In this document: positions 6,781 to 53,780 of the stretch, in pieces
Numbering within the stretch: position 1 is the first letter of the stretch
Layout: each line of letters starts with the position of its first letter
DNA from: an uncultured virus (IMG/VR IMGVR_UViG_3300017991_003073)
Lineage: Duplodnaviria > Heunggongvirae > Uroviricota > Caudoviricetes
Strand: one strand, 5' to 3'
Length of the DNA stretch: 64,000 bases
IMG/VR virus record: IMGVR_UViG_3300017991_003073
Position numbers and translations under genes: made by a program
Notes under the pieces: model-generated
Database searches by the model: none
What the model was told of the DNA's origin: nothing
The model's input: only the letters and a program-made list of their open reading frames with translations

Positions 6781-9096
6781 CTACTCGAAGTCATCGAAAA
6801 GACCAGGGAAGTTGCTTCCTTCCTTCGGTCCCGCCGTTGTTGGGCGGCGGCGAGGTGTAGGCACCTCGAAAGGATCATCCTCGTCTTCGTCCCACGGCAA
6901 GGTGGGGTGGACAGCCGCAGGGGCAGATCTTCTACGGGTACGAGGTTTGGGCTTCGCCGTGGCTCCCTTGCGTTTCGCAATGCCCCTCGGGCGCGTACCC
7001 TTCTTCCGCCGATACCCGGACACCGTCTCAGCACCCAGAGCCTGCACGACGCGAGCGTCGATCTCGTAGTCGAAGATTTCGTTGCTAGAGAGCCATCCCA
7101 AAGCGAGGTCGAGGCCCGCTTCGATGGCATCCTCCTCGGTTGTATAAGGCCCATCGTCCGAGACGAGGGAGTCCACGAACGCCCCAGTAGTAGAGTCGAT
7201 GATCGCGCTCAAGTAGTACCCATCCGGTCCGAGGACGACGGAGTAGTACACCACGTCATCTTCATCCCCTACGGAGTAGGCTTCGTCCACATCCACTTCC
7301 GCAATCACTGCCGGACCCGCAGCCGTAGCTGGGGTGTAGGCCGGACATGGAGCCTGGGACACGCCCTCCAAGTCGAGACCAGCGCACCGCACGTCCGCTT
7401 CCTGAGGTGTACGGCCTCCGGCTTTGACGATCTCACTGCTGAGGATGTTCTGCTGGATGGTCCGCACGACGGCGTACCATTCCCCTTCCGCTTTCCCGTC
7501 CTCACCTGTCCGCTTCATGCGGTGCTTGCCCTCGGTGATGAAAGGTTGGAGACGAGCAAGCGAAGCCTTCTTGATTGAGGCCTTGGCGGAGAGAGGGTAT
7601 TGGATGGCAGCCAATTCCTCGGCGCGATCCATAGCGAGATCAGCGATGTGCCGACGCGCCTCATAGTACCGGTCGTTGCTGGCGTGAAGCCAACCGGCCA
7701 GCGTCTCGTATCCACAGCCTTCGTTCCATCCCCCAGGAGGCAGTGCCCCCACGGTATCGAAGGCCTGGGTGAAGTCCCTGGATCCACGTACAGGCTGCCC
7801 GTCCTCGAATACATCGACGCTAACGCGAGGTATCCTCCGGCCTACCGAGCCATTGTCGATCTTCTCGACCTCATCACGGCCAATAGCCTTGCCGGGGTAC
7901 TGGTCCCATTCCACATAAACGAGTCGCTTAGCCGGGTCTGGGTAGATCGACCGGCCTCTGGCACCTGCGATGGCCCGTACGATGCCCTCCGCCCCTTCAG
8001 GGATCCCGCTCAGGATCATCGCCGCTGGACTCACCACCCTTACTCGATCCCCCTCTTTGAAAGACTTTCCGCTTACCGTTTTCTTACCCTTCGCCTTCTT
8101 CGACTTCGCCTTCTTCTTCTTACCCATGGGACCGCTGACCGTATCGATCTCCTCCTCAGGGATGGTCCCGTCTTCGATGTTCTCCTGCAACGCTTCGCGG
8201 AGGTCGTCAGTGGACTCCGAGTCGTAGACTGCGAAACCCCACCGCTCCAGGATTTCCTGGATCTCGGCTCGGTCTAGCCAGTTGAGGCGGGAGGCGAGCG
8301 TCCCTCCGGACACCGTCTTCTTGCCCTTCTTCGTGGCTCCAGGCCGTCTGCCCTTCTTGCGCTTCACCTTCTTGGTGGAAACCGTTCCTGTAGCCTTCGA
8401 GGCCTTCTTCGCCTTCGCCTTCTTCTTCGTCCTGGGCTTTGCGCTGGCAGTCTTCTTGGCAGTGGACTTCTTCTTCTTCCTGGCTTTAGCCTTAGCCTTC
8501 GGCTTCGTCTTGCCCGAGGAGAAAGCCTCGTCACCTTCGGTCATCACACGATTGACCGCTTCCCAAGAGAACTCCACCGACTCCCCTGGATCCTCCAGCT
8601 GCGAGACATGAGCGAAGCCCTGCTTGCGCCCCTGGATCTTCGCCGGAACCCCATCGAGGGTACATTCGGCTCCGGCCCAAAGGTCCGCAAGTTTCTCCTT
8701 CGCGGTCTTCGGCTTCGCTGCTCCGGTGGTTTTGGCTCTGGTTTTGGGCTTGGGCTTAGCTTTGGGCTTGGAGCCCCCACTATTCTTCGGCTTCGCCTTC
8801 TTCTTGGGCTTGTTGCCTTTGACCGTCGCGGGCACCGAAGCCAGCTTCGTCCGCGTAGCTACCACGGGACTGCTCTTCTTCCACGCCCCCCGGATCTGTG
8901 TGTCGGTCATAGGCGACTTGGCCCACACCAAGAACCGCCCGTCCGGACCCCCCGCATCGGACACCACCGCCCGGACGTAGAAATGAGGATAGTCCGGCAG
9001 CTTCTGGGCGCTCTTGACCGCCGTGACCTCACGAGCCAACGCAGCTGCCGTACTGCGGTCGTGCCGCCCTGGGATGTAGTGGGTCCAAATCTTCAT
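6781..9096 (-). CDS. Lys-rich multidomain protein, putative virion polyprotein (771 aa)
   Basis: H1-like K/A/P tracts alternate with small globular domains, including an SH3/KOW-like FKEGDRVRV...VYVEWD. TVSG occurs 4 times, with related motifs at junctions. Confidence 0.85.
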   Translation of the reverse strand: MKIWTHYIPGRHDRSTAAALAREVTAVKSAQKLPDYPHFYVRAVVSDAGGPDGRFLVWAKSPMTDTQIRGAWKKSSPVVATRTKLASVPATVKGNKPKKKAKPKNSGGSKPKAKPKPKTRAKTTGAAKPKTAKEKLADLWAGAECTLDGVPAKIQGRKQGFAHVSQLEDPGESVEFSWEAVNRVMTEGDEAFSSGKTKPKAKAKARKKKKSTAKKTASAKPRTKKKAKAKKASKATGTVSTKKVKRKKGRRPGATKKGKKTVSGGTLASRLNWLDRAEIQEILERWGFAVYDSESTDDLREALQENIEDGTIPEEEIDTVSGPMGKKKKAKSKKAKGKKTVSGKSFKEGDRVRVVSPAAMILSGIPEGAEGIVRAIAGARGRSIYPDPAKRLVYVEWDQYPGKAIGRDEVEKIDNGSVGRRIPRVSVDVFEDGQPVRGSRDFTQAFDTVGALPPGGWNEGCGYETLAGWLHASNDRYYEARRHIADLAMDRAEELAAIQYPLSAKASIKKASLARLQPFITEGKHRMKRTGEDGKAEGEWYAVVRTIQQNILSSEIVKAGGRTPQEADVRCAGLDLEGVSQAPCPAYTPATAAGPAVIAEVDVDEAYSVGDEDDVVYYSVVLGPDGYYLSAIIDSTTGAFVDSLVSDDGPYTTEEDAIEAGLDLALGWLSSNEIFDYEIDARVVQALGAETVSGYRRKKGTRPRGIAKRKGATAKPKPRTRRRSAPAAVHPTLPWDEDEDDPFEVPTPRRRPTTAGPKEGSNFPGLFDDFE

Positions 9097-9151
9097 CGCA
9101 GATCTCCTGGTAGAAGGACGTTCTGGTGCCCTAGATTACCGTCCCTGCGAA

Positions 9152-9472
9152 TCAGTGGCCAGGGGGTGATACCCGGTTTACATCCGCTTTGCACCCACGC
9201 GCTACAACCCTCCGCCGGAGGGAAGGAGTGGGAGGCATACGCAGGAGATACAGAATAGCCTGGAGCGCCCGTACCGAGGACGGACTCGGTGTTCGGCTAC
9301 CGTTGTTCCAATGTGCGAAGGTATGGTAGTTGATGCCGGTGAGTTCGGAGAGAGTCTGGTACAACCGGGCCTTGGTTGGGCTGCTAGTTTCCTGCCGCAG
9401 TTGCTCCAATAGGTCACGAACATCGACCTCTTCGTCGGGGAACACCTTCTCTTTCAGGTCCCGCAGTCGCAT
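9152..9472 (-). CDS. XRE/Cro-family helix-turn-helix regulator
   Basis: LSELTGINYHTFAHWNNGSRTPS; GGAGG RBS at 9482..9486; start re-chosen at MRLRDLK. Confidence 0.75.
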   Translation of the reverse strand: MRLRDLKEKVFPDEEVDVRDLLEQLRQETSSPTKARLYQTLSELTGINYHTFAHWNNGSRTPSPSSVRALQAILYLLRMPPTPSLRRRVVARGCKADVNRVSPPGH

Positions 9473-9486
9473 GTCCGAAAACCTCC

Positions 9487-9511
9487 AAAACTGAAAAACT
9501 TTTGCAGTTTC
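9487..9511. promoter_or_regulatory. 25-bp palindromic operator-like site, copy 1
   Basis: AAAACTG AAAAA C TTTTG CAGTTTC, abutting the RBS of the HTH gene. Confidence 0.7.
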
Positions 9512-9512
9512 G

Positions 9513-11387
9513 CTAGTACCAGATACGACGGGCTCCCAGAGGGCTATCACCGCTAACCTCCTGCGAATCCAGAGGTTGTACTCCTTGGAAGCTACGGTGC
9601 TGTCGTGCCCGACCTTCGGCCTCCTTACGCAGGCTCTGGATCACCTTCGCCTCGGCAGCCCCTTCCCGATCCGCTTCCGCGAACGTGGCTACCTCAACAG
9701 GGAGCAAACCCTTCCGGAGCGCCATCCAAGCAGGCTCCAGGTAGTAGATCTCGGCTTGGCTGGGGCGACACACCGTGTCCGGCATAGGCGAACCGCGACG
9801 ACGCCCTCGGATCATGTTACGGGTAAGGAGATACGGCGAGTACGCGAGGTCATCCCAGATTCGATTTGGGGGAGCCCCGGCTCGGTCGAGATCTTGGACC
9901 GCGAACCCATCTACGATACCCATAGCCATTCGGTACCGCGTCTCGTCGGCCTTCGAGGGAACCGAGACGCCACCCGCACGGTTCACAGAGGTCAGCACGA
10001 ACACCCGGTGCTTCTGCGCCGACCCTGGAACCACTACTTCCAGGCTCACTACGATGTAGTCGCCCTCGCGAAGGCCGCGCCCCACAGTCCTTTTGTTGGG
10101 GTCTCGACCCAGCAACCGATTAACGAGATCGAGCCCAGTAGTATTGGTCCTGGTACGCCCATCCTCAGCGTTGAAGTACCACAACTGCACTGAGGTCAGC
10201 CTACCCAATGGTTGGGGCGAACCCCAATCCGCACCACGCTGCTCGGGCTTGCTCAAATCGAAAGGTGAATCGAACAACGCATGGGAGGCCACCGCTACGA
10301 TCATCCGCTCTTCCAACGCAGGCCCCGGTGGAAGGTTGAAGAGGTAGGGCACATTCGGCCTGTTGCCGTTTCGCGGAAGAGCCCCGTACTCCTGCATAAG
10401 ATCGACGCCAGCCTTACCCGAGACCTCGTTGACGAGTGCAGCCCTGCCTGCAAGCCGCGTTAGAGCCGCCTTGGCCTCAGGGTTCTCCTGTGCCAACGAG
10501 ATCATGGCATCGATACCAGGATTTGTAATACCCAGCTTCCGCAATTCAGTGGTTAGCCTTCCGAGCCCAACTGGCAGGTCGTCCACAGGTCGTTCCGAGA
10601 TCCGACTAACCCCAACAGGAGGGGCCTGGGGTCGGGGGACGGCCTTGCGAGCAGGTTGACTGATACCGACGCCTGGACCAAGTCGCCGGGCGACGGTCGC
10701 CACCTCCGGCGATGCGATGGATTGACGCTCCTGCTTCGCCCTCCTCACATCTTCAGGCTCTGCCTCTCCGTGGAAGATGCCGTCAGGTGGTTCGGGTTCC
10801 TCAGGTTCTGGAGAATCTCCTGCATCCGCCGAAGCAGTCGTTGCAGACTCTCCGGACGATCCTTCTTCCTGGTCCTCATCGCCACCACCGCTTGAATCAG
10901 CTTCACCATCGTCGCCGTCTTCTTCCTCCCCATCATCTCCGTCATCTCGATCCGCACCCCCAAAGGGATCGCCTTCGTTCCACTCAACATCATCGTCCCC
11001 GCCTGAGTCGTCGGTATCACCATCGTCGCCATCCTCTACAGAGCCCTCGTCATCTTCGTCCGCGTCCGGTTCTTCACTATCCTCGACCTCTACTTCAACT
11101 CCCGAAACTTCCCCGCTCTCCTCCTCCTCCTCTGTCGTTCGAGGGTGGGCGGTTCGAGGTTCGAGTGGGGGTCCGAGGGGATCCTCTTCGTCATCGGAAC
11201 CGACCCCATAGAAGTCTTCGTTTCTGGGTTCAAACAACCCAGGCTGCGCCCCTCCAGTTGAGAGACGCGGCCTCTGGGGTTGTGCAGCAGCTTTCCCTGC
11301 GTTTGGTCTGGTTCCACTTCCCCGTCGAACGCCACGGGCTGGCGCATCCTGGTCTTGCCAGGGGAACCTGCCTTCACCGTCTGTCAT
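9513..11387 (-). CDS. hypothetical protein with very acidic disordered N-half (624 aa)
   Basis: ORF; D/E tract; globular C-half; EVSG occurs 3 times. Confidence 0.85.
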   Translation of the reverse strand: MTDGEGRFPWQDQDAPARGVRRGSGTRPNAGKAAAQPQRPRLSTGGAQPGLFEPRNEDFYGVGSDDEEDPLGPPLEPRTAHPRTTEEEEESGEVSGVEVEVEDSEEPDADEDDEGSVEDGDDGDTDDSGGDDDVEWNEGDPFGGADRDDGDDGEEEDGDDGEADSSGGGDEDQEEGSSGESATTASADAGDSPEPEEPEPPDGIFHGEAEPEDVRRAKQERQSIASPEVATVARRLGPGVGISQPARKAVPRPQAPPVGVSRISERPVDDLPVGLGRLTTELRKLGITNPGIDAMISLAQENPEAKAALTRLAGRAALVNEVSGKAGVDLMQEYGALPRNGNRPNVPYLFNLPPGPALEERMIVAVASHALFDSPFDLSKPEQRGADWGSPQPLGRLTSVQLWYFNAEDGRTRTNTTGLDLVNRLLGRDPNKRTVGRGLREGDYIVVSLEVVVPGSAQKHRVFVLTSVNRAGGVSVPSKADETRYRMAMGIVDGFAVQDLDRAGAPPNRIWDDLAYSPYLLTRNMIRGRRRGSPMPDTVCRPSQAEIYYLEPAWMALRKGLLPVEVATFAEADREGAAEAKVIQSLRKEAEGRARQHRSFQGVQPLDSQEVSGDSPLGARRIWY

Positions 11388-11404
11388 GGTGTCTCCCTAC
11401 GAGG

Positions 11405-12417: not shown

Positions 12418-14184
12418 CTACGGGCGGCGAACTGCTCGCAGGGGACTACCACCACCGTACTTCAGTGGTGCCCCCGAGGTCAGGAGAGCAGCGGCCAGGG
12501 AAGCGTCATCGACGCTAACTGGCTCGAACTCTCCTGTAAGGAATTGGTTGGAGATGGACTGGATGCCCCGTGCAGCCTGCCGAAGGTTCCCCAGCTTAGT
12601 ACTGAGTTCGGGGGTGAATCCGTCCAGTTCCTCGAACTCTTTCTTGAAAGTGGTCCCGAATTGGCGCGAGTCCCGGCGAAGGCTCTGCATCCCGTCGCGG
12701 AGGTCGGCCAGGACATCCATCGCCTGCCGATCCTGCGCGGAAGGGAAGTACATACCCCCTTCACCCTGATCGGTCAGTTCTCCTGGGAGAGGTACCGAAT
12801 CGGGAGACGGGGGAATCTCCTCCGGGAGCGAAGGGATCGTGTCCTCCGGAGCGGGTGGTGTCATCGGAGAGGTCATCGCTGGGGCGGGCAGGTCCGTGGG
12901 CATGGGTGTCGAAGTAGGCGGAGCGCCTCCCATCCGCGCATCGTGCATGGCCTTCAGCTGTTCGAGAGAGTGCGGGGCCTGAACACCTCCGAAACCCCCG
13001 AACTGCCCCACCGTCTCATCGATCTCCACACCGAGGGCATCCTCATCGATGACGTAGCCGCCCGTCGTCTGCTTCAACGGGAAGTCGTCCACGACGACAG
13101 GGCCACCAGCGGTCCAGCGGTGACGAGAAATGATCGCAGAACGTCCGGGGTAGTAGCAGTAGACCGTATACGGCCATCCCCGCTTCCGGTCCGGTCTCCC
13201 CGTCATACGAAGCTGTCCACCTCGGGCCTCGCACCCCATAAGATCCTTCGGAATGCAGACCTTCGCGCCACTGGAGTACTCCTTGTATACCCCGGTCGGG
13301 CATACGAAGCCTTGAGGCTTCTGCGCGGCCTTGATCTGGTAGCAGTAGGACGCCGTACCCGGTAGAGGGTAGACCTCGTACTGAGAGGGCGGATAGTTGT
13401 TCCAAGGACCGTTCTGCGGGCCTTGCCCTGCCGAGGGAGTCCACACCCTGAACCCAGAGCGGCACTGTTGAGTCGGCTGCACCGGCCCAGCGGCCCGCAC
13501 CTTGGCAGCGAGGTTTTGGAGGAACGTCGTATATTTCTGGTACGCCTCTTGCTGCGGCTTCCCAGCCAACATCCCTGCCCACTTGTAGAGGTACTGCTTA
13601 ACCTTCTGGACGATGGGGTGGCTCTGGAAGTTGCTCTGGTTGACGAGACGACCGTAGGTCGGAGTCGCCAAGTTCAGGGTCTGCTGGATGATCGAGTCCA
13701 CGTTGGGGACCACAGGCAATGTGATAAGTGACTCAGGGGCACCTCGGTCATGCCAGCGAACCCCCGCAGCGTGGAGGTTGTGGTTCCCTGGCCCGAACCA
13801 CCGATACGAGTCGGTGTAGTTCCGCCCCCGGAAAGCTAGTACCTGCGTGTTCGCGGGCACCAACATGTAGCTCCACTCATTCCGGTAACGTCCTGTATCC
13901 GGCACCTTACCGGTGAACTTTCCGATCCCTCCACCGTGGATCAATCGACTCGGAGCCGGATGCTTGTGCTTCAGGAGCGTGATTGTGCCAGGAGTACGGT
14001 TCAACGCAGACAAGGCTTGATCCAAGGCCTGCGTCAGGCGGCTCTGCTCAGCTTGGCCGATAGCCGTTGCTGCGAAATCCGTCGTAGTGGTCGGTTGGAC
14101 CATCGACGGTGGGTTCTGGGACACGATCCCCTGGCCGACCGTGGGAGCCTTTGCAGCCAATGATCCGTTTGTTCTGAAGTCCAT
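12418..14184 (-). CDS. hypothetical putative virion protein (588 aa)
   Basis: ORF with GGAG RBS; Cys-containing central domain; PTVG, TTGG and ETVG motifs. Confidence 0.85.
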   Translation of the reverse strand: MDFRTNGSLAAKAPTVGQGIVSQNPPSMVQPTTTTDFAATAIGQAEQSRLTQALDQALSALNRTPGTITLLKHKHPAPSRLIHGGGIGKFTGKVPDTGRYRNEWSYMLVPANTQVLAFRGRNYTDSYRWFGPGNHNLHAAGVRWHDRGAPESLITLPVVPNVDSIIQQTLNLATPTYGRLVNQSNFQSHPIVQKVKQYLYKWAGMLAGKPQQEAYQKYTTFLQNLAAKVRAAGPVQPTQQCRSGFRVWTPSAGQGPQNGPWNNYPPSQYEVYPLPGTASYCYQIKAAQKPQGFVCPTGVYKEYSSGAKVCIPKDLMGCEARGGQLRMTGRPDRKRGWPYTVYCYYPGRSAIISRHRWTAGGPVVVDDFPLKQTTGGYVIDEDALGVEIDETVGQFGGFGGVQAPHSLEQLKAMHDARMGGAPPTSTPMPTDLPAPAMTSPMTPPAPEDTIPSLPEEIPPSPDSVPLPGELTDQGEGGMYFPSAQDRQAMDVLADLRDGMQSLRRDSRQFGTTFKKEFEELDGFTPELSTKLGNLRQAARGIQSISNQFLTGEFEPVSVDDASLAAALLTSGAPLKYGGGSPLRAVRRP

Positions 14185-14920: not shown

Positions 14921-14936
14921 CGCAGGGACCTCCTTC

Positions 14937-16682: not shown

Positions 16683-17522
16683 CTAGCGGCCCATGTACGC
16701 CGCGCCGGGGACGTTCCCGAGCGTGGTGTTCTGCTCCAGGAGGATGGTGACCACGCCCGTCCAGATGAAGGTCTGGTCGGCGGCACCAGCGCCCGTGTCG
16801 AAGTTCCACGCCCCGCCGTTCGAGGCACGACTCGGGACCGCGATGGTCACCGGGTACTGGCTGCTCTCGGGCAGGTAGATCTCGATGGGAGCCGGGGCGT
16901 GGCTGTGCGTCGGCTCCATGCGCGGAGCGACGTAGTAGATGCTGGCGTGGCCGGCGGGCAGCGAGGTGTCACCCGCATCGACGGTCCAGTAGGAGTCGAT
17001 CCCGCCCGTGTTCTTGATCGCGCTCGCGATGGGAATCACGGTGGGGAAGGGCTGGTTCTCGATGGTCACCGCGCCCGACAGCAGCGCCCCGAAGGACGTA
17101 GCGTAGGACTCCAGCGCCGCCGTGATCTCCACGGCCTCGAACGCATTCGCGCCGTAGGCGTCGAAGGCGATGGTCACGTCACGCACGACCGCGAAGGTCT
17201 GCGCGTCCGTGACGAGGGTGAAGGATCCAGCACCGGGGACACCCCCGGCATCGGGACCTGCGACCAGATCGGCGGCGAAGTCCGAGACGATCTCCGTGCC
17301 CGTGTCGGCCACGAAGAACGCCCCGTTGACGACCTCGAAGACGCGCTTCGTGATCTGGAGCGAGTTGTTGGGATCCGGGCACGGAGGGGCCTGGAACATC
17401 TGGATGGCCGGGACCGGGCAGTTCGGGTTGCCCGCGTACACCTGCGGAGCGGCCATCGGCGGAGGGGGAACGGCAGCCATGGGAGCGGCCTGCCCGACGT
17501 TCATGGGGAAGAGTCCCTGCAT
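16683..17522 (-). CDS. candidate major capsid protein (279 aa; possibly jelly-roll)
   Basis: Very strong G/C third-position codon bias by eye, strong AGGAG RBS, dedicated terminator and beta-rich A/G/T/V composition. Fold not verified. Confidence 0.55.
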   Translation of the reverse strand: MQGLFPMNVGQAAPMAAVPPPPMAAPQVYAGNPNCPVPAIQMFQAPPCPDPNNSLQITKRVFEVVNGAFFVADTGTEIVSDFAADLVAGPDAGGVPGAGSFTLVTDAQTFAVVRDVTIAFDAYGANAFEAVEITAALESYATSFGALLSGAVTIENQPFPTVIPIASAIKNTGGIDSYWTVDAGDTSLPAGHASIYYVAPRMEPTHSHAPAPIEIYLPESSQYPVTIAVPSRASNGGAWNFDTGAGAADQTFIWTGVVTILLEQNTTLGNVPGAAYMGR

Positions 17523-17595: not shown

Positions 17596-19317
17596 CTAGT
17601 AGCCGCCGAAGTAGGTGGAGAAGAGCCCGCTGACCGTGGCCTGGAGGGCGTTGGCCTCGGCAGGAGCGGTGTGGACGTACCCCGAGCAGACGAGCCCGAT
17701 GGACGGAGCCTCACCCTGCGAGGTGCCGACCGGAGCGCCAGACACCAGGAAGTTGTTCCCGTTGTACATGCTGGCACCGGAGACAGCGGACGCGGACGGG
17801 GCCGAGATGTTCGGCGGCACCTGGGCACCCCAGGCAGTCACCTGATCGCCACCGTAGCCCCAGGTGTGGCCGTTGTTGCTGATGTAGTTCAGCAGGAAGG
17901 CCGTGGTGACTTCGGAGGGCGACCACCCCTTGTTGTTGCTGGCGATCCAGTGCGCCCACGGATACAGGGTATCGAGGTCGAGGGCACGGCCCTGAGCGGT
18001 TTCGACGGTCACTTCCTCGACGGAAGGTGCGGGTAGCATGACCGTCTCGCCCGTCCGAGCATCCTCCACCGCGATCTCCTCAGACACCGGAACAGGTGCC
18101 TGCATCGCCGGTTGCATCGCCGGTTGCATCGCGGGCTGCATCGCGGGCTGCATCGCCGGTTCCATCGCCGCAGGAGCCCCTGCACCCAACCCTGCAATCA
18201 GGGCGCGGGCGACGACGCCGTAGGTCTTGGCTTCCGACAGGGCTGCGATGGCACGATAGAGGTCGCCGTTGTCGAGGTGGTACTGCACCATCTCTAGCGG
18301 GACGCTCATCGACGCCAAGTGCTTGGCAGCGGAGTCGTAAACCTGCTCCTGCTCGTAGTTAAAAGGGCCTTGGATCCCGTCTAGCGCGGCGTCCAGGGAA
18401 GCCTTCTCATCCTGCAACGACTTCAAGACAGCGCCGGTCTCGTCCGTGGAGTAGGGCGGCATACCTTGCACGTCTTCCCCTTCCTCCATGGGCAGGCCAT
18501 CCGGCAGCGCACCGCCGTCTCCCTGCTGGTTCGCCAGCTGGTTCGCCTGAGCCAAGGCTGCTGCCGGGGCCGCAGTACCAAACACCTGCGGGAGCCCCAT
18601 CAGGGACTTGTCGCCAGCGATGTACTGCCCGACGCCCTGCTCCGGCTTGATGACACCGAAGTACCCGAGGAGGTTCGTCAGTCCGGCGAGACCGAACATC
18701 GAAACCGCCCCGTCCTTCATGTCGGCCAGGAAGGGCTTCTGGATGCGGTTGGCAGGCAGGAAGCGGTACGCGAGGTACGCCCCGGCCAGTGAGGTGATGA
18801 CCTTGGTGAGGCTCGCCCGCTTCGCCATGTTCTGGCCAGCGGCGGGTTTCATCACGGCGTCGAGTCCCTTCGCGACGAAGTCGGACAGGACCCCACCGGC
18901 AGCGTTGGCGGCGAGCATCCCGACGCCCCGCGAACCGGCGCGGACGACTTCCTTCGAGAAGAACTGCTTCAGCGCGAGGCCCTGCATGGGGCCTTGGCCC
19001 GTGGTCGCGGGCTTACGCCCTGCGCCACGACGCCCCTGGACCGGGCGGCGGGCACCCGTGGTCCGAGGCGGCTGGACCATTACCTTGACGGACTTTGTTC
19101 CGGCCACGGTAGTCTCCTTCTTGCTTCTGGGTTTCGGCTTGGAGCCTGTGGATCCCCCCGAAGTCGTCCGAGCCGTCGTTGCCTTCTTCGCCCCAGGCCT
19201 CGACCCCTTCTTGCGAGAGGGGCGAGAACCGGAGGTTGACTTCGGCTTCGACTTTTTGGCTTTGGCTTTCTTCGAGGAGGTACTCCGCTGGCCCCCAGCC
19301 ACGGTGATCTGCTTCAT
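17596..19317 (-). CDS. probably highly expressed Lys-rich, membrane-associated virion protein (573 aa)
   Basis: GGAGG RBS before MKQITVAG; basic N-terminus; three hydrophobic helices; biased codons; many xVxG/xTxG motifs. Confidence 0.8.
   Translation of the reverse strand: MKQITVAGGQRSTSSKKAKAKKSKPKSTSGSRPSRKKGSRPGAKKATTARTTSGGSTGSKPKPRSKKETTVAGTKSVKVMVQPPRTTGARRPVQGRRGAGRKPATTGQGPMQGLALKQFFSKEVVRAGSRGVGMLAANAAGGVLSDFVAKGLDAVMKPAAGQNMAKRASLTKVITSLAGAYLAYRFLPANRIQKPFLADMKDGAVSMFGLAGLTNLLGYFGVIKPEQGVGQYIAGDKSLMGLPQVFGTAAPAAALAQANQLANQQGDGGALPDGLPMEEGEDVQGMPPYSTDETGAVLKSLQDEKASLDAALDGIQGPFNYEQEQVYDSAAKHLASMSVPLEMVQYHLDNGDLYRAIAALSEAKTYGVVARALIAGLGAGAPAAMEPAMQPAMQPAMQPAMQPAMQAPVPVSEEIAVEDARTGETVMLPAPSVEEVTVETAQGRALDLDTLYPWAHWIASNNKGWSPSEVTTAFLLNYISNNGHTWGYGGDQVTAWGAQVPPNISAPSASAVSGASMYNGNNFLVSGAPVGTSQGEAPSIGLVCSGYVHTAPAEANALQATVSGLFSTYFGGY
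18098..18170 (-). repeat. 12-bp coding tandem repeat (PAME/PAMQ, about 6 units)
   Basis: TGCATCGC(C/G)GG(T/C) units. Confidence 0.9.
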
Positions 19318-19391
19318 TTCGACCTCCGCTCCTCTATGACCCCTAAGAGGCTTCGAGGGCAACGGCACACAAAAACGAACGGTAACAAGTG

Positions 19392-21581
19392 CTACGCAGC
19401 GAGGTGGCGACAACTCTCCTTTGCTAGTGCGACGAGTACCGGAGTTCCTACGCTAGTCCCCGACGATGAGATCCTATCGGCCCGAAGGGATCCCTCGACG
19501 GTTGGATTGAACGGAGCGCAAGCGCCGGTAGACGAACAATACTCACCGTAGGACCGTCCCACAGCGAGCGCATTGGCAGGGGACATTCCGCTTACCAGTG
19601 CTGCCTGCTGAGTCGCCCCAACAACAGCCTGGACCGGAACCCCACCAACACGTTTCACGGACCTAGCAACCGCTGGTGCGCCCACCAGCGAGGCTAAGAT
19701 CTTCTTGAGGGTATCGTTCCCTTCGGGACGCATCGCCCCGGCCATCTCCTGGAGATTGGCCAACAGGGAAGCGAAATCGAACTCACCGGTCTTAGCAGCC
19801 TTTTCTGCGACAGGAGCCGCAGCGGCTTGGAGGATGTCCGGTATACCCTTGGCGTTTCCGCCCAAAGCGTCGAGCAGACCTCCGTCGCCTCCGAACAGCG
19901 CAGCGATGGCTTCCGTGCCCTTCCCGGCGCTCTCTTTCTTGGCGACGATCTCGATCTCTTCGCCCGCTTCCGCCAAGGCTCCTTCGCCTTCTCCGAGGAT
20001 CTTCCCGAGAACTTCCATCAGACCCCCGGAAGAACCAGAATCTCCTAACACCTTCGAGACGATGCTGCCCAGGTTGTCTGCTTTGCCTCCTAGGACAGAA
20101 GAGCCGAGTTTTCCGATGATATCAGCTATACCACCCCCCTCGGCGGAACCACCCCCACCAAGAAGACTCGGAGCGATCTTGGATAGCATGGGTAGGATCG
20201 AACCACCTGCGGCACCCAAGCTACCTAGGAGAGGAGCAGCAGCCCCGCCGGTCACAGCGGTCAAAGCAATCCCCGCCAAAGCAGGCCAGTTGTCCTTGAG
20301 GAATGACCCTGCGCCCTTGGCGAACTTCTTCAGGCCCTTGGTGATGCCCAGCTTCTTATCCAGTTGCTTCAGCTTCTTCACCGCACCCTTGGCGTTCCGC
20401 TCTACGAACTTGCCTACTGGCTTGATGACTTTCTTGTGGACGAACTTGGCCGCACTCTTCACGGCATTACCAACGCCCTTCAACGCTCCGCCGATGGCCT
20501 TCTTCGCCTTCTTGAACAGCTTCCCGAGGAAGCCAACTTCGCCGGGGTGGCCGCAACCCGTAGCGTCGAGAATCGGCCCAGCCACAACCTGGGTACCGTC
20601 TTTGAAGGTGATAATCTCGAACCCCCGCACCTTCAACTCGCGCTCCAGAGCCGCTCGGTTGGCTTCGATGATCGACTTAACTCCTGGGAACCCTTGCTCC
20701 ACCGCCATCACTTCGGCTAGCGAAGCGATCTGGCTCTGAGTCATGGACTGCGAGACCTTCGGCCCATGGACGGCATTGTTGTAGCGCCACCCTGGAGCAA
20801 AGCAATTCGGGTTCTCGGTCGCCGCATCGAATAGCCCATTGAGCCTCGAAGCAATACACCGACGTAGCTTGTAGTTGGGCATCGTTTCTGGCGTCCAGAG
20901 GAGCCAGAAAAGACGGCGTGGTTGGGTGTGGGGTCGGAACCAACGGGGGTCGCAGCTGTTGTACCCCGGCAACGGGCCACAGGAACGGATCGGGCGACAC
21001 GGCTTCGGGGGCCAGCATGGACCGGACGTGGTCGGCACCTCGCCCTTCTGCTGGAGGTACTGGATCACGGCTTCCGTGCCCCGCTTCGGATCCACCAGCA
21101 TTGCCTCGATCAGACTCTCCTCGGTCGCCTTCGGACCGTAGACGCTACGCGGGCGATACGTCCCCGAGAAGATCGGAGGCCGATCCGGCACGTAGTTTTC
21201 CCCAAGGTAGCCCTGAGCATCGCACTCGCAGTCCGCACCGACCGTCGAGCCTCCGCAGGTGCAGCCGTGACCATGACGCGCCCAACCCGGCTTCGGAGGC
21301 ACGGGCATCCGCTCATCGGAAGCACGACAGAACGCTGGGATGGTGCAGCTATCATACCCCATTGGGGGATTGTAGTACGGCAGGCTGACCGGAGGGATGA
21401 GCGTCCCCGGATTGTACGCCTGGGGATACGCAGGTGGGCAAGGCACCCCCGCCGTAGCAGGACGCTTCTGACCCACCGGAAGAGGCGCGGTAACCGGAGG
21501 CCCCGCGACCAGCTTCAAGCTATGGTTGATCTGGTCGTGGAGTTCCAGTGGTGTACCCGAGGTGTATTGGTCGGTTCTCAT
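19392..21581 (-). CDS. putative virion protein with cationic amphipathic helix and Gly-rich hydrophobic region (729 aa)
   Basis: GFLGKLFKKAKKAIGGALKGVG... followed by WPALAGIALTAVTGGAAAPLLG. Confidence 0.8.
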   Translation of the reverse strand: MRTDQYTSGTPLELHDQINHSLKLVAGPPVTAPLPVGQKRPATAGVPCPPAYPQAYNPGTLIPPVSLPYYNPPMGYDSCTIPAFCRASDERMPVPPKPGWARHGHGCTCGGSTVGADCECDAQGYLGENYVPDRPPIFSGTYRPRSVYGPKATEESLIEAMLVDPKRGTEAVIQYLQQKGEVPTTSGPCWPPKPCRPIRSCGPLPGYNSCDPRWFRPHTQPRRLFWLLWTPETMPNYKLRRCIASRLNGLFDAATENPNCFAPGWRYNNAVHGPKVSQSMTQSQIASLAEVMAVEQGFPGVKSIIEANRAALERELKVRGFEIITFKDGTQVVAGPILDATGCGHPGEVGFLGKLFKKAKKAIGGALKGVGNAVKSAAKFVHKKVIKPVGKFVERNAKGAVKKLKQLDKKLGITKGLKKFAKGAGSFLKDNWPALAGIALTAVTGGAAAPLLGSLGAAGGSILPMLSKIAPSLLGGGGSAEGGGIADIIGKLGSSVLGGKADNLGSIVSKVLGDSGSSGGLMEVLGKILGEGEGALAEAGEEIEIVAKKESAGKGTEAIAALFGGDGGLLDALGGNAKGIPDILQAAAAPVAEKAAKTGEFDFASLLANLQEMAGAMRPEGNDTLKKILASLVGAPAVARSVKRVGGVPVQAVVGATQQAALVSGMSPANALAVGRSYGEYCSSTGACAPFNPTVEGSLRADRISSSGTSVGTPVLVALAKESCRHLAA

Positions 21582-23107
21582 ACCTTGCTCCTGGGGAGGA
21601 ATCCGGCTACCGACGAACGGCCACGGATACGGGGCAGAACAGGAAGTCCCGCAGCTGTCCCGTACCGACGCCGTTGTTCGTCAAGGTAGATCTTGTAGGT
21701 CTGAGGCTGGGAAGGGACGAAGTCCTGGAAGTTCGATCCCCGGTCCATCTCCTGCCCCCACGGGAGCGGCGACGATACGTCGTAGATTCGCCGCATCCCG
21801 TTCTGGAGCATGATGAACGGGTAAACGTGGAACTTGTCCGTTTCCCCTGGGTTGCCTGCCAGACGCACCCCAGTGCGAAGGCCACATGACTCCGCTAACG
21901 CCATGAAACACGCAGTCAGGTCGTCGCAATCGTACTTCTGGACCCCTGGGTAGTAAGTGTGTGTCAGGAACATCCGCAGAGGCGTGGCTGTCTCTTCCAC
22001 ACCCACGGTCTCTTCTGCGTAGGCAAAGATCGTCCTCACCGTATTTGCCAGGAGTTCCGCCAACTGCACTGGGTCAGTAGGCCAGACCCCTCCTGTTTGG
22101 GCTGTCACCGCATCCCGAGCGATGGCCCGGAATATATACCCGTACCGCTGGGCGTACAGGGCAGTCATGTAAGCGATGATCGAGCCTGTGGCGTAGGGTC
22201 CAAGGTTCTCCGCCACAGCACCCTTGGCCCGAGGGAAGTGCTGCTTGGCGAGGAAAGGCGAATGGAGATCGTCGGGAATGTGTTCCGCTTCCTTCCGCAG
22301 CCACTCGAACCACTGCGGAATGGGGCGGATCTTCGGACGGTCCCAGAAGCGCGACCCTTGGGTTCTCCCGGACCCCACGAGGTGCCCTCGAATCGGGAGC
22401 CGACCAATAGCCTTCGGAGCGCGTCCATAGTCGCGTCCCTTGGGTACACCCTTGGTAGCGTGGGCCTGGAAATGCTGGCGGTTTGTCCCTTTAGGAGCGA
22501 CCCCCAACTGATCCGAGGTGAGATCCACCGGGAACCAGTTATTCGAGTCGGGATCTAACTGACACTCCGCGTACGCCCGGTAGCTACCGTTCTGTTGGAC
22601 GATCACGAACCGAGTTGGGATACCCATAGCCTCTACGAGCATCAGGTAGAACAGCGTGGCCTCGTCGTCGGAAAGTGTGTCAAGGCCCTGGTACACCGTC
22701 TCCACGAGGACTCGAAGCGGATTGCGCCATTCTCCCGGTTGATCGCCAGTCAAGATCCGGTAGTTGCCTTGGACGATCCGAGCCAGGGCTAACACCGCAG
22801 GTTGGCGGTATTGCAACGCTGGCCGTGTCTCCCGCACCCCTGCATTGTGCAGCAACGCCGAAGCAACCCAACGGAAGACCATCAGGGTCTTCTTGTAAAG
22901 GTTTGCCATATCCACGGCCATCTTCCCTGCCACGTCAGGCCGGAAGGAGCCCGGAAGCTGTTGCTGTTGTTGCAGGCGAAGTTCCCCGTCGCGCAAGGTA
23001 ATGTCCGGTACGAACCGCTCATCGATATTGAGCAATTCAAGTTCGACCCACGGAGCCGCTACGCCCCGGAGATCTACACTACCTGTACTCGGTCGGAGAT
23101 TCGTCAT
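21578..23107 (-). CDS. tandem transglutaminase-like (papain-fold) protein, putative maturation protease
   Basis: The C-terminal domain YDCDDLTACFMALAESCG...FHVYP...IYD gives a Cys-His-Asp triad. The N-terminal copy (SDDEATLFYLMLVEAMGIPTRFV...RAYAE...WFPVD) lacks Cys and His. Confidence 0.75.
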   Translation of the reverse strand: MTNLRPSTGSVDLRGVAAPWVELELLNIDERFVPDITLRDGELRLQQQQQLPGSFRPDVAGKMAVDMANLYKKTLMVFRWVASALLHNAGVRETRPALQYRQPAVLALARIVQGNYRILTGDQPGEWRNPLRVLVETVYQGLDTLSDDEATLFYLMLVEAMGIPTRFVIVQQNGSYRAYAECQLDPDSNNWFPVDLTSDQLGVAPKGTNRQHFQAHATKGVPKGRDYGRAPKAIGRLPIRGHLVGSGRTQGSRFWDRPKIRPIPQWFEWLRKEAEHIPDDLHSPFLAKQHFPRAKGAVAENLGPYATGSIIAYMTALYAQRYGYIFRAIARDAVTAQTGGVWPTDPVQLAELLANTVRTIFAYAEETVGVEETATPLRMFLTHTYYPGVQKYDCDDLTACFMALAESCGLRTGVRLAGNPGETDKFHVYPFIMLQNGMRRIYDVSSPLPWGQEMDRGSNFQDFVPSQPQTYKIYLDEQRRRYGTAAGLPVLPRIRGRSSVAGFLPRSKV

Positions 23108-40585: not shown

Positions 40586-41308
40586 ATGAACTGGACGGAG
40601 TACGCATTCGACACCGAGGCCGAGGCCAATGCTTTCCGGCAAGGAATCGAGTTCGAGCGCGAGGAGGTCCCTACGATTCAGGTCGAGTATCGGGACGATG
40701 CTGGGGAGTGGGTGGTGATGGTGGCTGAGGTCGCTACGGTCCAGGGGGACTGGGAGGACGATGAAGAACCTGAGTGGGAGCCTCAGGACGACGACATATT
40801 CATCCCTTGGAACAGCAGACCAGAGGTGTACGAGGCCTATTACATCAGGAAGCCGATTGCGGAAGCTGAAGACTTCGATTCGCTTCTCGCTGAGATCAAG
40901 TCTTGGATGGAGAAGAGCCAGTACTGGCCGAATGTGTGGGCGGAAGGGGAGCGCGGCGGATACGACCTCGTGAACCTGGAGACGGGTGAGTACATGTTCT
41001 ACCATCCCGGAGTGGGCGGCCCGACTGTGGGGATGGAGCCAGGGATGACTGCTGATGGTGAGGTGAGTACCGACCCCAACGACTGGCCGTCAGAAAACGA
41101 GATCGAGGAGATCTTCCGCAAGGGTCCAGAGTTCCAGGGGATGCTGGACCCCACTCGCGTCGAGGTGTTTTGGGAGCATGACCAGTACTGGATCCGGATC
41201 GAGGACGAGGGATATGACGCGAACGATAGCCTCGCGACCCGGACTTTCTCCGTGGTCGCTGCCGATCCTGGTGTCGAGAACTCCGGCATCGACTTCGAGG
41301 AGGTTTAG
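40586..41308 (+). CDS. acidic three-module protein (start re-chosen at MNWTEY)
   Basis: Three small acidic domains joined at ATVQG and PTVG. Confidence 0.8.
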   Translation: MNWTEYAFDTEAEANAFRQGIEFEREEVPTIQVEYRDDAGEWVVMVAEVATVQGDWEDDEEPEWEPQDDDIFIPWNSRPEVYEAYYIRKPIAEAEDFDSLLAEIKSWMEKSQYWPNVWAEGERGGYDLVNLETGEYMFYHPGVGGPTVGMEPGMTADGEVSTDPNDWPSENEIEEIFRKGPEFQGMLDPTRVEVFWEHDQYWIRIEDEGYDANDSLATRTFSVVAADPGVENSGIDFEEV

Positions 41309-41374: not shown

Positions 41375-42745
41375 TTACTCCCCGAGAGCGGCTTCGAGTA
41401 GGAGGTCCCCGTCGCTGAATGCCCCGGCATACATGGACTCGTAGAGCCATACCGCTTGGGCAACCTCCAGCGGCTTCATACCCTTGAGCCACGTCATCCC
41501 TCGTTCCTTGCTGCTGGGGAGAGCCAAAGCATCGCGGATAGCAGTGTCAAACTTCGCCGCCGATAGGCCAGCTTCACTCCTCGCTTCCCGGAACTTCTCT
41601 TGGATGGTGTCTCCGATGAAGGTCCACTGCTGGATTGGGTGGTTGGGATCGTCGAGGTTCTGGAGGAACGCTTCGGCCCAGTCGAGGCGGTTGTCGATGT
41701 ACCTTTGAAGGTCTTCGGCCTCGATCTCTTCCGGTGGGATTGGCTCCCCAGTGTCAGGGTCTTGGAGGGCGACGAAGGCACGGAGGAAACCCGTAGCAGC
41801 GCCTGCGATGTCGGCAGTGTACAGGGCCGCGTCTACCGCTAACTCAGCTATGGTATCGGACCCTTGCTCATGCCACGCCCGGAACTGGTAGGGCCGGATA
41901 TGCCCTATGATGCTGCTGAAGTTGACCCGGTAGGAGCCGTCGAGGAGCGACTCGATGGAGGGGGCTTTCAGAACAAGGTCGTGGATGTGGTTGGCCTCGT
42001 AGTTTTCGGTCCAGTCAGGGCTGTAACCCGCAACAGCCTCGGCTAGATCCTTCAGCCACTCTCGAACGGCATCAGGGTAAGGTTCGATGTACTTGGAGGT
42101 GGGGGCGAGTGTTTGCTGTCCTTCGGCGTTGAAGGCTTCTACGAACACAGGGTCGAGCATCTCCGCGAGGAAGCTGGGGTTCTTCCCGTAGCGGAGCCTT
42201 CCCTTCAGCTGGCTCTCGAAGATCTGGTGGATCGCGTTGAGTCGTTCAACCACAGGGCCGACCATTTCATCGATCTCGTTTACGTAGACGGAACCTACAG
42301 AACCGCCGGTCACCCCTTTCTTGGCGCACTCTGGGCCGATGCCCCGTTCGATGGACTCGGGTGTTGTAAGCCGCCGACCGCAACGCATACACTTCGCTTC
42401 GCCCAGTAGCCGGTAGCCCTTCTTGTGGAGAGCGGCCTCTTCGCGGAACTGCGCGAGGGACAGGAGCGTTTTCGCGGCCTTGGGGTAGAACCCAGAGTCG
42501 GTGTCCCGGTACTTCTTCCAGACGTAGATCTCCCGGCCATCCTTGCTCATAAACCCAAACGGTGTCCAGTCGTCCGAGTTGTTCGGCCCCGTGAGCATGT
42601 AAACCACACGCTGGCCCGGAGCGAACTTGGACTTCTTTGGTTGGGTCTGGACCTTGAAGGTACGATGGCCTCCCTTCGGGGATTCGATGGTCCAGATCCC
42701 GTTGAGGAGACCGAACTCTTCGGTCCAAGCGATAGGTTGTGTCAT
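41375..42745 (-). CDS. DUF6011-like Zn-binding domain protein with C-terminal helical extension
   Basis: CMRCGRRLTTPESIERGIGPECAKK. Confidence 0.8.
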   Translation of the reverse strand: MTQPIAWTEEFGLLNGIWTIESPKGGHRTFKVQTQPKKSKFAPGQRVVYMLTGPNNSDDWTPFGFMSKDGREIYVWKKYRDTDSGFYPKAAKTLLSLAQFREEAALHKKGYRLLGEAKCMRCGRRLTTPESIERGIGPECAKKGVTGGSVGSVYVNEIDEMVGPVVERLNAIHQIFESQLKGRLRYGKNPSFLAEMLDPVFVEAFNAEGQQTLAPTSKYIEPYPDAVREWLKDLAEAVAGYSPDWTENYEANHIHDLVLKAPSIESLLDGSYRVNFSSIIGHIRPYQFRAWHEQGSDTIAELAVDAALYTADIAGAATGFLRAFVALQDPDTGEPIPPEEIEAEDLQRYIDNRLDWAEAFLQNLDDPNHPIQQWTFIGDTIQEKFREARSEAGLSAAKFDTAIRDALALPSSKERGMTWLKGMKPLEVAQAVWLYESMYAGAFSDGDLLLEAALGE

Positions 42746-42863: not shown

Positions 42864-43910
42864 TCATTGTCGATTGGCCCAACTTTTTTCGGTAAAGACT
42901 TCTACCCGGTGCTGACGATTCTGGGTGTATTCCACTACGATCTTCGTTTTCGCCTTACTACGGCCCCCTGCGTCGTACGGCTCGACGCTAGCAACCTCCC
43001 ACACCTTGCCGCCTTTCGTCACAAAAGTATCACCTACGACCGGCTGTTCCTTCTCGTATAGTTTTTTGATCGTCGGTGGGTTGATCTTTCCGCCGCGTAG
43101 TTGGCGGCGTTTTGGTTGCCTCCGGCCCCCAGAGCCACTGACAGTCATTTCACCGGGAGGCAGTTTCAGCTTCTCTACTTCACGGCAAGCGGATAGAAGC
43201 ACGTAGTTGATGGCCTCTTTACCCATTCGGGAGGGCATCTTACGAACGCGCTCTTCCCAGTCGGTGGCGACGTTGTTATGTCCCAACTCACGCAGTCGCT
43301 GGCTGGCTGATAACAACGCCTCGCGGAGGTGTTTAACGGTCTTGATGTTACCGAAAGTCCCGATTGAATCGCGTAGCTTCGGTAGACGTTTTGTGCCGCT
43401 GACTTCGAGGGAGGCTGGGTCCGTGTACTGGCCGTCGAGGCGCTCCCCGTTCATGTCGATGGGGTAGCCGTTCTCGTCGGCTTGGAAGGTCATGTCGATG
43501 GTTTTGGGGTCGAGAGAGTCCACCCACATGTCGTTCAAGTAGTACAGGGTGTACCCGTCTGAAGTTTGGAACGTGGGGATCTGGGAGTGGAAGCCAGCGG
43601 TGGTCCGCTTGCCAGCACATAGATCACGGACAACCGACGCCAGTTTGTCGGCGTAGATGTCTTCCATTTCGGCCATGGTCACCCTGTCGTAGGACCCTCG
43701 TTTGATCCGAAACAACTCCACGTCGTAGAGGTCCCTGGGGTTCAACGTGATGGTGATGAACCGCATTGGCCCACCGCCCACTTTATAGGTCATGCTCTTC
43801 GCATTGTAGGTGTGGGCTTGCGCCCCGCACGAAGGAAGAGCCCAGAAGTCCGCATGGACGATCTGTTGGTGGATGGTGTTCGCAACGGTGGGGTCGGTAG
43901 TCTTAGCCAT
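42864..43910 (-). CDS. four-module protein (348 aa)
   Basis: Modules separated by TTAG, EVSG and TVSG; the first has ITLNPRDLYDVEL...DIYADKL, typical of small phage proteins. Confidence 0.8.
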   Translation of the reverse strand: MAKTTDPTVANTIHQQIVHADFWALPSCGAQAHTYNAKSMTYKVGGGPMRFITITLNPRDLYDVELFRIKRGSYDRVTMAEMEDIYADKLASVVRDLCAGKRTTAGFHSQIPTFQTSDGYTLYYLNDMWVDSLDPKTIDMTFQADENGYPIDMNGERLDGQYTDPASLEVSGTKRLPKLRDSIGTFGNIKTVKHLREALLSASQRLRELGHNNVATDWEERVRKMPSRMGKEAINYVLLSACREVEKLKLPPGEMTVSGSGGRRQPKRRQLRGGKINPPTIKKLYEKEQPVVGDTFVTKGGKVWEVASVEPYDAGGRSKAKTKIVVEYTQNRQHRVEVFTEKSWANRQ

Positions 43911-47802: not shown

Positions 47803-47829
47803 CGAAACTGAAAAACTTTTGCAGTTTCG
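47803..47829. promoter_or_regulatory. 25-bp palindromic operator-like site, copy 4
   Basis: C GAAACTG AAAAA C TTTTG CAGTTTC G, between divergent genes. Confidence 0.7.
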
Positions 47830-47928
47830 CGCTCCCGGTGGATGCCCCCTTCAGTCTAGCCCACACCTTCCCTGAGGGCTAAGATCGCATTGCTATCGCT
47901 AGTGTGTAACGCTGCACGGAGAAAAGGG

Positions 47929-53300: not shown

Positions 53301-53411
53301 GACATCTTCCGAGAGACGGCTTTGGTGCCCCCTATAATGACGCGGCCCCCGTCTGGGGTCCAGACGAGGGCCTTGTCCTCTCCGTTTCGGCGGTCGGGAG
53401 TCAAGTTGAGG

Positions 53412-53780
53412 CTAGCGCCCCTTCTTGAACATTCCGGCGGCGAGGTAGCCGACGAGGCCACCCAGCAACAGGGTACCGAAGTTCATCCCCCCACCCTGTT
53501 GCGCTTGCTGACCGACGACGCGGCCACCGGCCACGAGAGTCGGGTCCAGCACCACGCGACCAGTGGTCAACGAGGGCTGCTTACGCGGGTTGCAGGAGAC
53601 GAACGATCCCCCCTGGTAGACCTTGGTGACACCGTCTTCGCCCACTCGCGAACCCATCATGCCCTCGGGGACACGACAGATGGGGCTCGACCCCGGAGTG
53701 GAACCTTGGTACGCCTTTGCGGGGCGCGTCCGGCGACGGGCACCCACGGTCTCGCCGGGCATTGGCGGCATGACGCTCAT
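53412..53780 (-). CDS. small membrane-anchored protein (start re-chosen at MSVMPP)
   Basis: AGGAG RBS; C-terminal GTLLLGGLVGYLAAGMFKK; several xVG/xxQG motifs. Confidence 0.75.
   Translation of the reverse strand: MSVMPPMPGETVGARRRTRPAKAYQGSTPGSSPICRVPEGMMGSRVGEDGVTKVYQGGSFVSCNPRKQPSLTTGRVVLDPTLVAGGRVVGQQAQQGGGMNFGTLLLGGLVGYLAAGMFKKGR

Follow-up and report, generated by a model that had tools for sequence, protein, structure and literature searches.

Why do many unrelated proteins of one virus share a short tag ending in Gly, typified by Thr-Val-Ser-Gly, and does a Cys enzyme encoded on the same DNA act on it? The question is raised by 64,000 nucleotides of an uncultured virus (IMG/VR record IMGVR_UViG_3300017991_003073), the whole of which is called the window here. 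An initial annotation had proposed a polyprotein maturation system in which a transglutaminase-like protein encoded at 21578..23107 cuts after the Gly to mature structural proteins and release packaged cargo domains. We show that the tag is real and selected at the peptide level, that it is concentrated in a putative morphogenesis cluster and in cargo-like genes, and that an enzyme bearing a catalytic triad is linked to it, although the gene list first proposed was too long and Gln as a tag residue found no support. Taken together, it appears fairly probable that the encoded enzyme cuts the tag during particle maturation, in an adenovirus-like manner with a LapG-like enzyme.

A peptide tag under selection

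The copies first reported are exact, namely TVSG at nucleotides 7015, 8068, 8131, 8305, 17626, and 43134 and three EVSG words in gene 9513..11387, as are the background matches in NrdJ and PyrE. Within a curated set of 59 genes (19,712 aa), compared with 1000 local 30-aa shuffles, TVSG occurs 7 times versus 0.47 expected, [TE]VSG 11 times versus 0.93, VSG 24 times versus 8.2, and T[VT][SA]G 16 times versus 2.2, counts that none of the shuffles reached. The broader pattern of the initial annotation, [TEAP][VT][SAQ]G, also stands out (30 versus 13.0; 0/1000 shuffles), and 13 genes of known function show no excess (2 versus 2.7). The objection that these words were chosen post hoc is answered by a scan of all k-mers, which ranks VSG first among 3-mers (−log10 p of 5.5 versus a null maximum of 4.8 in 100 sets) and TVSG first among 4-mers, by a narrow margin (6.5 versus 6.4, 100 sets). 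Five unrelated, GC-rich control records with automatic gene calls (P23-77, SH1, and 49-50 kb each of RSL1, phiCbK, and Mx8) gave pooled observed-to-expected ratios (O/E) of 0.4-1.1, versus 13 for [TE]VSG when the same method was applied to the window. Without gene 6781 (genes are named here by their first coordinate), [TE]VSG still occurs 7 times versus 0.87, and when each protein is counted once, 10/59 proteins carry the tag versus 3.8 expected (7 of 2000 shuffles). Since the 11 TVSG/EVSG sites use all four Val codons, all four Gly codons, and both kinds of Ser codon (AGY 6, TCN 5), the constraint acts on the peptide, as first proposed; a DNA-level origin of the tag is ruled out by this codon variety.

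The wording of the tag was refined on a pool of 18 window genes and 19 orthologues, whose members are not independent. Pooled O/E values were 13.7 for TV[SA]G, 13.1 for EVSG, 11.5 for TT[SA]G, and 10.3 for TTGG, followed by TVGG (6.1), TA[SA]G (5.2), S[VT][SA]G (3.1), and TVG (2.9). Words lacking the final Gly were not enriched in this pool (O/E of 0.8 for TV[SA] without Gly), and the same holds for words with Ile or Leu in the second position or a bulky residue in the third. The refined consensus is (T/E/S)-(V/T/A)-(S/A/G)-G, to which a short form, (T)VG, is added. Gln in the third position, which had been admitted at first, shows no enrichment (TV[^SAG]G, 7 versus 5.1). The short form is insignificant in the window alone (12 versus 7.9) and draws its support from relatives of the virus; indeed, TVG and TTGG/TTG/EVG replace one another at single positions across orthologues.

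The distribution of the tag is uneven. Among gene groups drawn after the matches were known, T[VT][SA]G is concentrated in eight cargo-like genes (8 versus 0.37) and in the ten-gene cluster (5 versus 0.54), and it is not enriched in seven fiber-like genes (1 versus 0.61) or in 34 other genes (2 versus 0.72). Tested singly with the broad pattern and 2000 shuffles per gene, six of the genes first listed exceed chance: 6781 (0 of 2000), 42864 (16), 9513 (42), 17596 (47), and the two whose counts are given in Table 1. Gene 19392 is borderline (124 of 2000), while 11405, 23114, 43917, 45081, 53412, and 41375 lie at background (220-1128 of 2000).

The tag had also been described as falling in linkers or near termini. 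Compared with 1216 other Gly positions, the 46 strict sites have flanks that promote disorder more strongly (TOP-IDP 0.18 versus 0.10, p = 1e-4), although some short matches lie inside folds, such as ETVG at residues 366-369 of the enzyme. In gene 6781, whose 9 sites compare with 1.35 expected, the modules are separated by four TVSG, one TAAG, one TTAG, two SVG, and one TVG, and none of these modules has a significant family match. Placement at domain boundaries can be tested where a module has a detectable family. Module 1 of gene 42864 matches phrog_9437 (profile positions 2-88 of 98) and is followed by TTAG, and a stand-alone homologue of it would end at about residue 104. In gene 41375, module 1 has stand-alone counterparts in three phages, whose genes stop 6-7 residues beyond the match, at a point corresponding to residue 148-149. 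The tag thus coincides with the end of the stand-alone homologue in 2/2 testable modules; the boundaries of the remaining modules, most of which have no detectable family, are putative. For gene 42864, searches yielded neither shorter homologues nor phage matches; genes 40586 and 6781 (whole or residues 265-594) likewise had no phage matches, gene 40586 had no family match, and family scans identified no peptidase family in cargo-like genes or segments. The tag-ended cargo-like gene 43917-45077 has a C-terminal GNAT-like domain at E 0.008, below the cut-off.

Table 1. Coordinates of the tagged genes, the candidate enzyme, and their features in the window
Feature	Position	Strand	Remark
Candidate maturation enzyme, 509 aa	21578..23107	-	two transglutaminase-like domains
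Catalytic triad codons: C394 21926-21928, H427 21827-21829, D443 21779-21781	21779..21928	-	
Tags on the enzyme's disordered tail: TAAG 484-487 and SVAG 499-502, directly after the last helix	21602..21658	-	
Putative morphogenesis operon: 457, enzyme, 729, 605, 279, 334, 197, 213, 588, 322 aa	11405..24487	-	order kept in relatives
Single jelly-roll protein, 279 aa, probable major capsid protein, low-confidence leader	16683..17522	-	AF2, homologues
NVG(Q) in the capsid-protein leader	17493..17501	-	homologue leaders
Basic-leader protein, 605 aa; probable Met start 19317; C-terminal TVSG 17626-17637	17596..19413	-	
729-aa protein; EVG (20532-20540) directly before long amphipathic helix	19392..21581	-	
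588-aa cluster protein; TVG(Q) twice, TAGG, TTGG	12418..14184	-	34 of 2000 shuffles
771-aa cargo-like protein	6781..9096	-	basic N-terminal part, modules of 15-144 aa
624-aa protein; three EVSG bracketing an acidic part and a folded part	9513..11387	-	
348-aa four-module protein; TTAG (103), EVSG (169), TVSG (256)	42864..43910	-	
456-aa protein; N-module (DUF6011) ends at GSVG 148-151 (42293-42304)	41375..42745	-	
240-aa acidic three-module protein; TVQG, TVG	40586..41308	+	63 of 2000 shuffles

The candidate enzyme and its gene cluster

The transglutaminase-like identity first given to the product of 21578..23107 is borne out by a PF01841 match above the cut-off at residues 104-195, and PF01841 was found in 5/12 members of the enzyme family. 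Domain 1 is without an invariant Cys or His; domain 2 has D393-C394-D-D, H427, and D443, and Cys394, His427, and Asp443 are invariant in 12/12 aligned sequences. In the AlphaFold2 (AF2) model, which has a predicted local distance difference test score (pLDDT) of 79 and falls below 50 at residues 483-509, both domains match members of the transglutaminase superfamily (Z scores of 8-9.8). Fold matches include factor XIII (Z 9.8; root mean square deviation [rmsd] 3.7, 159 residues aligned), the putative protease 3kd4 (9.7), and TG3 (9.4), and further TG2, PNGase, PeiP, and LapG (Z 7.9; rmsd 5.3, 151 aligned). As modeled, the fold leaves the choice between proteolysis and cross-linking unmade. Adenain-like folds are absent from the fold-search matches listed, which excludes nothing. 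PF06035 gave no match among 12 family members at E values up to 1, and the enzyme has no sequence match in the PDB.

The enzyme family, with 13 relatives at the 50% cluster level, bears the tag itself. Tails contain [VA]AG in 12/16 homologues versus 1.1 in shuffles, and leaders contain TVG or TVAG in 6/13 versus 0.27. A complex prediction for enzyme residues 9-482 with residues 305-350 of gene 6781 scored 0.00 and gives no evidence either way.

Three relatives with gene context, L003, L004, and L005, encode enzymes 47%, 49%, and 44% identical to that of the window. In each the gene order is helicase, 457-aa gene, enzyme, 729, 605, and then 279 where covered; L004 keeps the order of the whole operon, and L003 and L005 agree with it as far as their coverage extends (the 605 and 279 genes). 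The enzyme is the second gene of the operon in 3/3 relatives. Tested with the pattern of the initial annotation, which had been defined beforehand on the window, the cluster proteins have 14 matches versus 3.6 in L004 and 10 versus 1.95 in L003 (both 0 of 1000). L005 is strong for TVG (7 versus 1.3) and V[SA]G (12 versus 3.4; each 0 of 1000). When the repeat-rich 605 orthologue is left out, significance persists in L003 (1 of 2000) and L004 (3 of 2000) and is lost in L005 (187 of 2000). Overall, 12/19 cluster proteins of the three relatives contain a strict site versus 2.2 expected.

The 279-aa protein is encoded by the best-conserved gene of the cluster (53% identity to L004 and L005; 33 matches, 31 aligned). 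Its AF2 model has an all-beta core (residues 54-272) forming a single jelly roll, with middling fold matches to the SPV1 capsid protein (Z 6.0) and P23-77 VP17 (Z 5.1; rmsd 4.9, 110 aligned), tied with nucleoplasmins, and the protein is, judging from this model, probably the major capsid protein. Its leaders vary in length and sequence, yet xVG is present in 28/29 of them, and the one exception has TTGG twice; two homologue fragments without a leader were excluded from this count. VG[QMN] occurs in 26/29 leaders versus 2.9 in shuffles. Homologues of the enzyme and of the capsid gene both occur on longest contigs of 329,333, 24,338, and 6,836 bases, and these equal sizes suggest that the two genes co-occur more widely. 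The capsid homologues P0047 and P0030 lie on contigs of 618,894 and 329,333 bases, which represent very large genomes or integrated copies.

The neighboring proteins carry tags at corresponding places in their orthologues. The 605-aa protein has a Lys/Arg-rich N terminus with 3 tags, followed by hydrophobic helices; each of 4/4 orthologues contains 4-6 tag-like words, 31-43 of its first 105 residues are Lys or Arg, and the C-terminal site aligns as TVSG/TVGG/TISG. Since a search with this alignment gave no further matches, the evidence for this gene consists of four sequences. In 4/4 orthologues of the 729-aa protein, EVG, TTGG, TTDG, or TTG precedes a helix whose hydrophobic moment ranks in the top 3%; at that place L002, a close relative, has TTG instead of EVG. 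The L004 orthologue of the 588-aa protein has TVAG and TVG close to its start. Hints of an internal membrane are limited to hydrophobic and amphipathic segments in cluster proteins, and no usable match came from atlas searches with either the 279-aa or the 334-aa protein.

A probable processing site and the alternatives

In the mechanism that we propose, internal virion proteins would be made as precursors with the tag in flexible linkers, and the co-encoded transglutaminase-fold Cys enzyme would be packaged and would cut at the tag during maturation. Such cuts would trim the leader of the capsid protein, chop the basic DNA-binding leaders, and free an amphipathic, membrane-active helix. The enzyme may also clip its own tail, and fused cargo proteins would be split into their original small domains. 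As to the cut position, our analysis gives the register T-V|S-G, with T-V|G in the short form, roughly an even chance of being right; a cut after the Gly, as initially proposed, seems somewhat less likely, and a cut before the Gly is likewise disfavored. A cut inside the tag is favored because LapG cuts TA|AG, and one directly after the Gly fits poorly because Pro follows it in 7/46 strict sites. In the LapG register, T-V|(S/A/G) describes both the long and the short tags, and Pro after the Gly is no obstacle.

In the accessible portions of the papers cited, LapG is described as a Cys-dependent transglutaminase-like protease whose product starts AGP, hence the cut TA|AG (PMC3032545), with a site given as [T/A/P]AA[G/V] and cut between the alanines (10.1101/198937, 10.1101/2020.05.11.089839); DvhG cuts likewise, and a calcium-binding motif by the active site is described (PMC13090378). 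These proteases (BTLCP, PF06035) resemble the viral enzyme in their transglutaminase-like fold, Cys-His-Asp triad, and small-residue site overlapping the viral tag, and the LapG site TAAG occurs on the viral enzyme's own tail. LapG differs in being, according to the same portions, single-domain, periplasmic, LapD-controlled, and directed at one site in a large adhesin, whereas the viral enzyme has tandem domains, no PF06035 match, and dozens of putative sites on unrelated proteins. Neither a LapD partner nor a large RTX adhesin was found in 55 window open reading frames (ORFs) or among the neighbors in L003-L005.

African swine fever virus pS273R, poxvirus I7, and T4 gp21 are parallel maturation proteases. 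Of the precedents invoked initially, adenovirus does show the same substrate layout, but LapG is closer in enzyme and site than adenain (the adenovirus protease), I7, or gp21. In adenain the catalytic His precedes the Cys, unlike the Cys-His-Asp order of the viral enzyme. Both systems would employ one viral Cys protease and a short Gly-containing consensus in two forms, and the adenain substrates (IIIa, VI, VII, VIII, mu, TP) are laid out similarly, including precursors of basic core proteins and one protein whose amphipathic helix acts on membranes. As given in the accessible part of PMC3386624, the two Gly motifs at which adenain processes capsid and core precursors are (M/I/L)XGX-G and (M/I/L)XGG-X, and an amphipathic helix lies at the N terminus of protein VI. 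This wording is not matched here, the enriched words being T/E-V/T/A-S/A/G-G, and adenovirus further differs in enzyme family, eukaryotic host, and double jelly-roll capsid.

The cargo-like genes recall polyvalent proteins, in which unrelated small domains are fused and which were proposed to be packaged and freed by proteolysis (accessible part of PMC5512222). Genes 42864 and 41375, possibly chains of several independent domains, each have one module that matches stand-alone phage proteins. Polyvalent proteins mostly embed a zincin-like peptidase, and the main text, where accessible, is without transglutaminase (PMC5512222); the arrangement here is a separate enzyme plus a linker tag. The realm Singelaviria is defined by the single jelly-roll fold (PMC12714852, accessible part), and the single jelly-roll, capsid-like model obtained here bears a weak structural likeness to proteins of its Helvetiavirae (P23-77, SH1) and of SPV1, a likeness that unrelated folds equal. 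However, the P23-77 and SH1 genomes measure 17 and 31 kb versus at least 110 kb here, their records annotate no protease, the tag is not enriched in either, and the 279-aa protein has no sequence likeness to VP17 or VP4 (hhalign probability 0.1-0.2%). The main text of a paper on prokaryotic double jelly-roll viruses (PMC5894146) contains neither "transglutaminase" nor "protease", a review of papain-like enzymes describes no such system in its accessible part (PMC10318531), and the literature listings searched contained no account of maturation by a transglutaminase-fold enzyme in viruses of this kind.

Several observations weigh against cleavage by the encoded enzyme. Cross-linking transglutaminases (Z 9.3-9.8) outrank LapG among the fold matches, and Foldseek returned no match for the enzyme at E 0.001. 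In L005 the signal is weak both for the strict tag (T[VT][SA]G, 1 versus 0.42) and for the pattern of the initial annotation (5 versus 2.2; 65 of 1000), the L004 helicase has 2 strict sites versus 0.10 expected (4 of 1000), and NrdJ and PyrE carry matches. Homologue counts are not independent, and TTSG at 12-residue spacing in L003 and L004 suggests tandem duplication. The capsid assignment depends on matches with Z below 8, most cargo modules have no detectable family, with remaining matches only at E 0.01 or worse, and another protease could lie in the half or so of the contig beyond the window.

Among other explanations, the one that survives best, though improbable, is that the tag stays uncut and serves as a signal for docking or packaging; proteins would be loaded into the particle when the tag is recognized by a scaffold, by the inside of the capsid, or by the inactive first domain of the enzyme. 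Such a signal would account for a tag on cargo-like and internal proteins and not on fibers, for the conserved non-catalytic domain, and for tags at both ends of the enzyme. Loading, however, needs one tag, and here 3-9 copies lie between modules; moreover, the strict small residues plus Gly look like a scissile site, and tags stand right in front of an amphipathic helix and where ancestral domains end.

Cleavage by a different protease, either from the part of the genome outside the window or a LapG-like one of the host, is unlikely. The contig of 110-122 kb, versus a window of 64 kb, leaves room for such a gene, and TAAG is a known LapG site in the accessible LapG sources; but the candidate is second in the operon in 3/3 relatives, keeps its triad, and carries the tag on itself, and LapG is periplasmic in those sources, with assembly of this virus presumably cytoplasmic. 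Quite unlikely, too, is a cross-linking transglutaminase or other acyl-transferase for which the tag marks modification or cross-link sites stabilizing the particle. The top fold matches (factor XIII, TG3, TG2), the Gln that follows VG in 22/29 first matches in capsid leaders, and the Lys or Arg within 4 residues downstream of 19/46 strict sites point that way, yet most tags are without Gln or Lys, Gln at position 3 is unenriched, and fold rank says nothing about reaction type. Chance, amino-acid bias, beta-turn preference, or local duplication without shared function, to which the matches in enzymes and the tandemly repeated copies could be ascribed, is largely refuted and very improbable, given that the all-k-mer null is exceeded, that the five control phages show no excess, that the signal persists when the richest genes are removed and when each protein is counted once, and that homologues keep the tag although its flanks cannot be aligned.

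Cleavage by the encoded enzyme would have broader implications. Tentatively, we envisage a lineage, so far undescribed, of single-jelly-roll bacterial viruses with very large genomes (110 to perhaps >300 kb), in which the LapG-like enzyme and its site form a particle-wide processing code for capsid, core, and membrane-penetration proteins, and in which the same site may serve as a linker for captured small phage genes, packaged as polyproteins and freed as effectors on infection. Sequence-specific maturation of many particle proteins typifies adenoviruses and large eukaryotic DNA viruses, which use another enzyme family; a tailless bacterial virus with transglutaminase-fold maturation would thus represent a convergent solution. 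A class of viral transglutaminase-like genes would also gain a function, and virion maturation would be tied to the chemistry of LapG adhesin release. The tag itself predicts a virion proteome and domain boundaries in a virus group with almost no annotation.

Genomic setting and repeated DNA elements

The window has 60% GC and is densely packed with genes. Matching DNA was found on contigs of 110-122 kb, so that the window covers about half of the genome. The virus is apparently large, tailless, bacterial, and not yet described. Its enzymes and replication genes include NrdJ, PyrE, PyrF, a NifS/IscS-like desulfurase, an SF2 helicase, a DnaG zinc finger, and a PD-(D/E)XK nuclease; further families are a PolA-like fragment, DnaJ, RRM, and fiber-like BclA_C, LamG, and LVIVD proteins, and the majority of the remaining genes match no family (Pfam, PHROGs). 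No terminase, portal, or HK97 capsid was detected among the 55 ORFs (Pfam) and 46 ORFs (PHROGs) scanned in the 64-kb window, and no packaging ATPase was detected in this half or so of the contig. Bacterial-type enzymes and AGGAG-like words upstream of genes suggest a bacterial host. Runs with matching DNA are labeled sediment, seawater, or aquaculture metagenome (13 rows; 6 possible sources), with no RNA runs among the rows listed. Reads of four runs over 6700-11500 reveal variants at under 90-99% likeness, with 435 differences. No relatives of the window were found in the viral_contigs or genome_contigs collections.

This virus-like genome contains adjacent pyrE and pyrF (31662-33274), the desulfurase gene (47890-49122), and a bacterial RRM protein (33326-33703). 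The PolA-like protein (53897-55312; 471 aa) is short for a family A polymerase and falls under the Pfam cut-off. Fiber- or spike-like genes (LVIVD propeller, BclA_C, LamG) occupy 33781-39922 and 49365-53300, and genes 33781 and 37089 have a common 167-nt repeat, 73% alike. In the relative L005, a helicase gene with two Hint domains and a LAGLIDADG domain (inteins) lies at 3006-6161; after its capsid-like gene come, at 14459-16120, genes for a patatin phospholipase and an RRXRR protein.

Three families of DNA repeats occur in the window. The 11-bp word CCCCTCYTGTT has 16 copies, 8 per strand, versus 0.09 expected, spanning 2271-63427 and including those at 22087, 30982, 31571, 36329, 40277, 45245, and 54745. 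Because its 13 copies inside genes differ in frame and orientation, it is a DNA-level site; it encodes TGG in three genes and TVSG in none, is present in L001/L002 and absent from L003-L005, and is possibly a protein-binding or packaging site. A near-palindromic, AT-rich element with the core AAASTGAAAAASTTTT occupies five loci (9485-9513, 47802-47830, 28250-28278, 39979-40007, and 58669-58697), the copies at 9485 and 47802 being 97% alike over 29 nt and lying upstream of both cargo-like gene runs; a promoter or operator is a possible role. Finally, a family with the core TATATAGTG / ACGTCACT (2179-2213, 3224-3258, 5724-5758, 6667-6698, 31573-31604, and 58779-58808) sits near small-gene and replication regions and is a possible early promoter.

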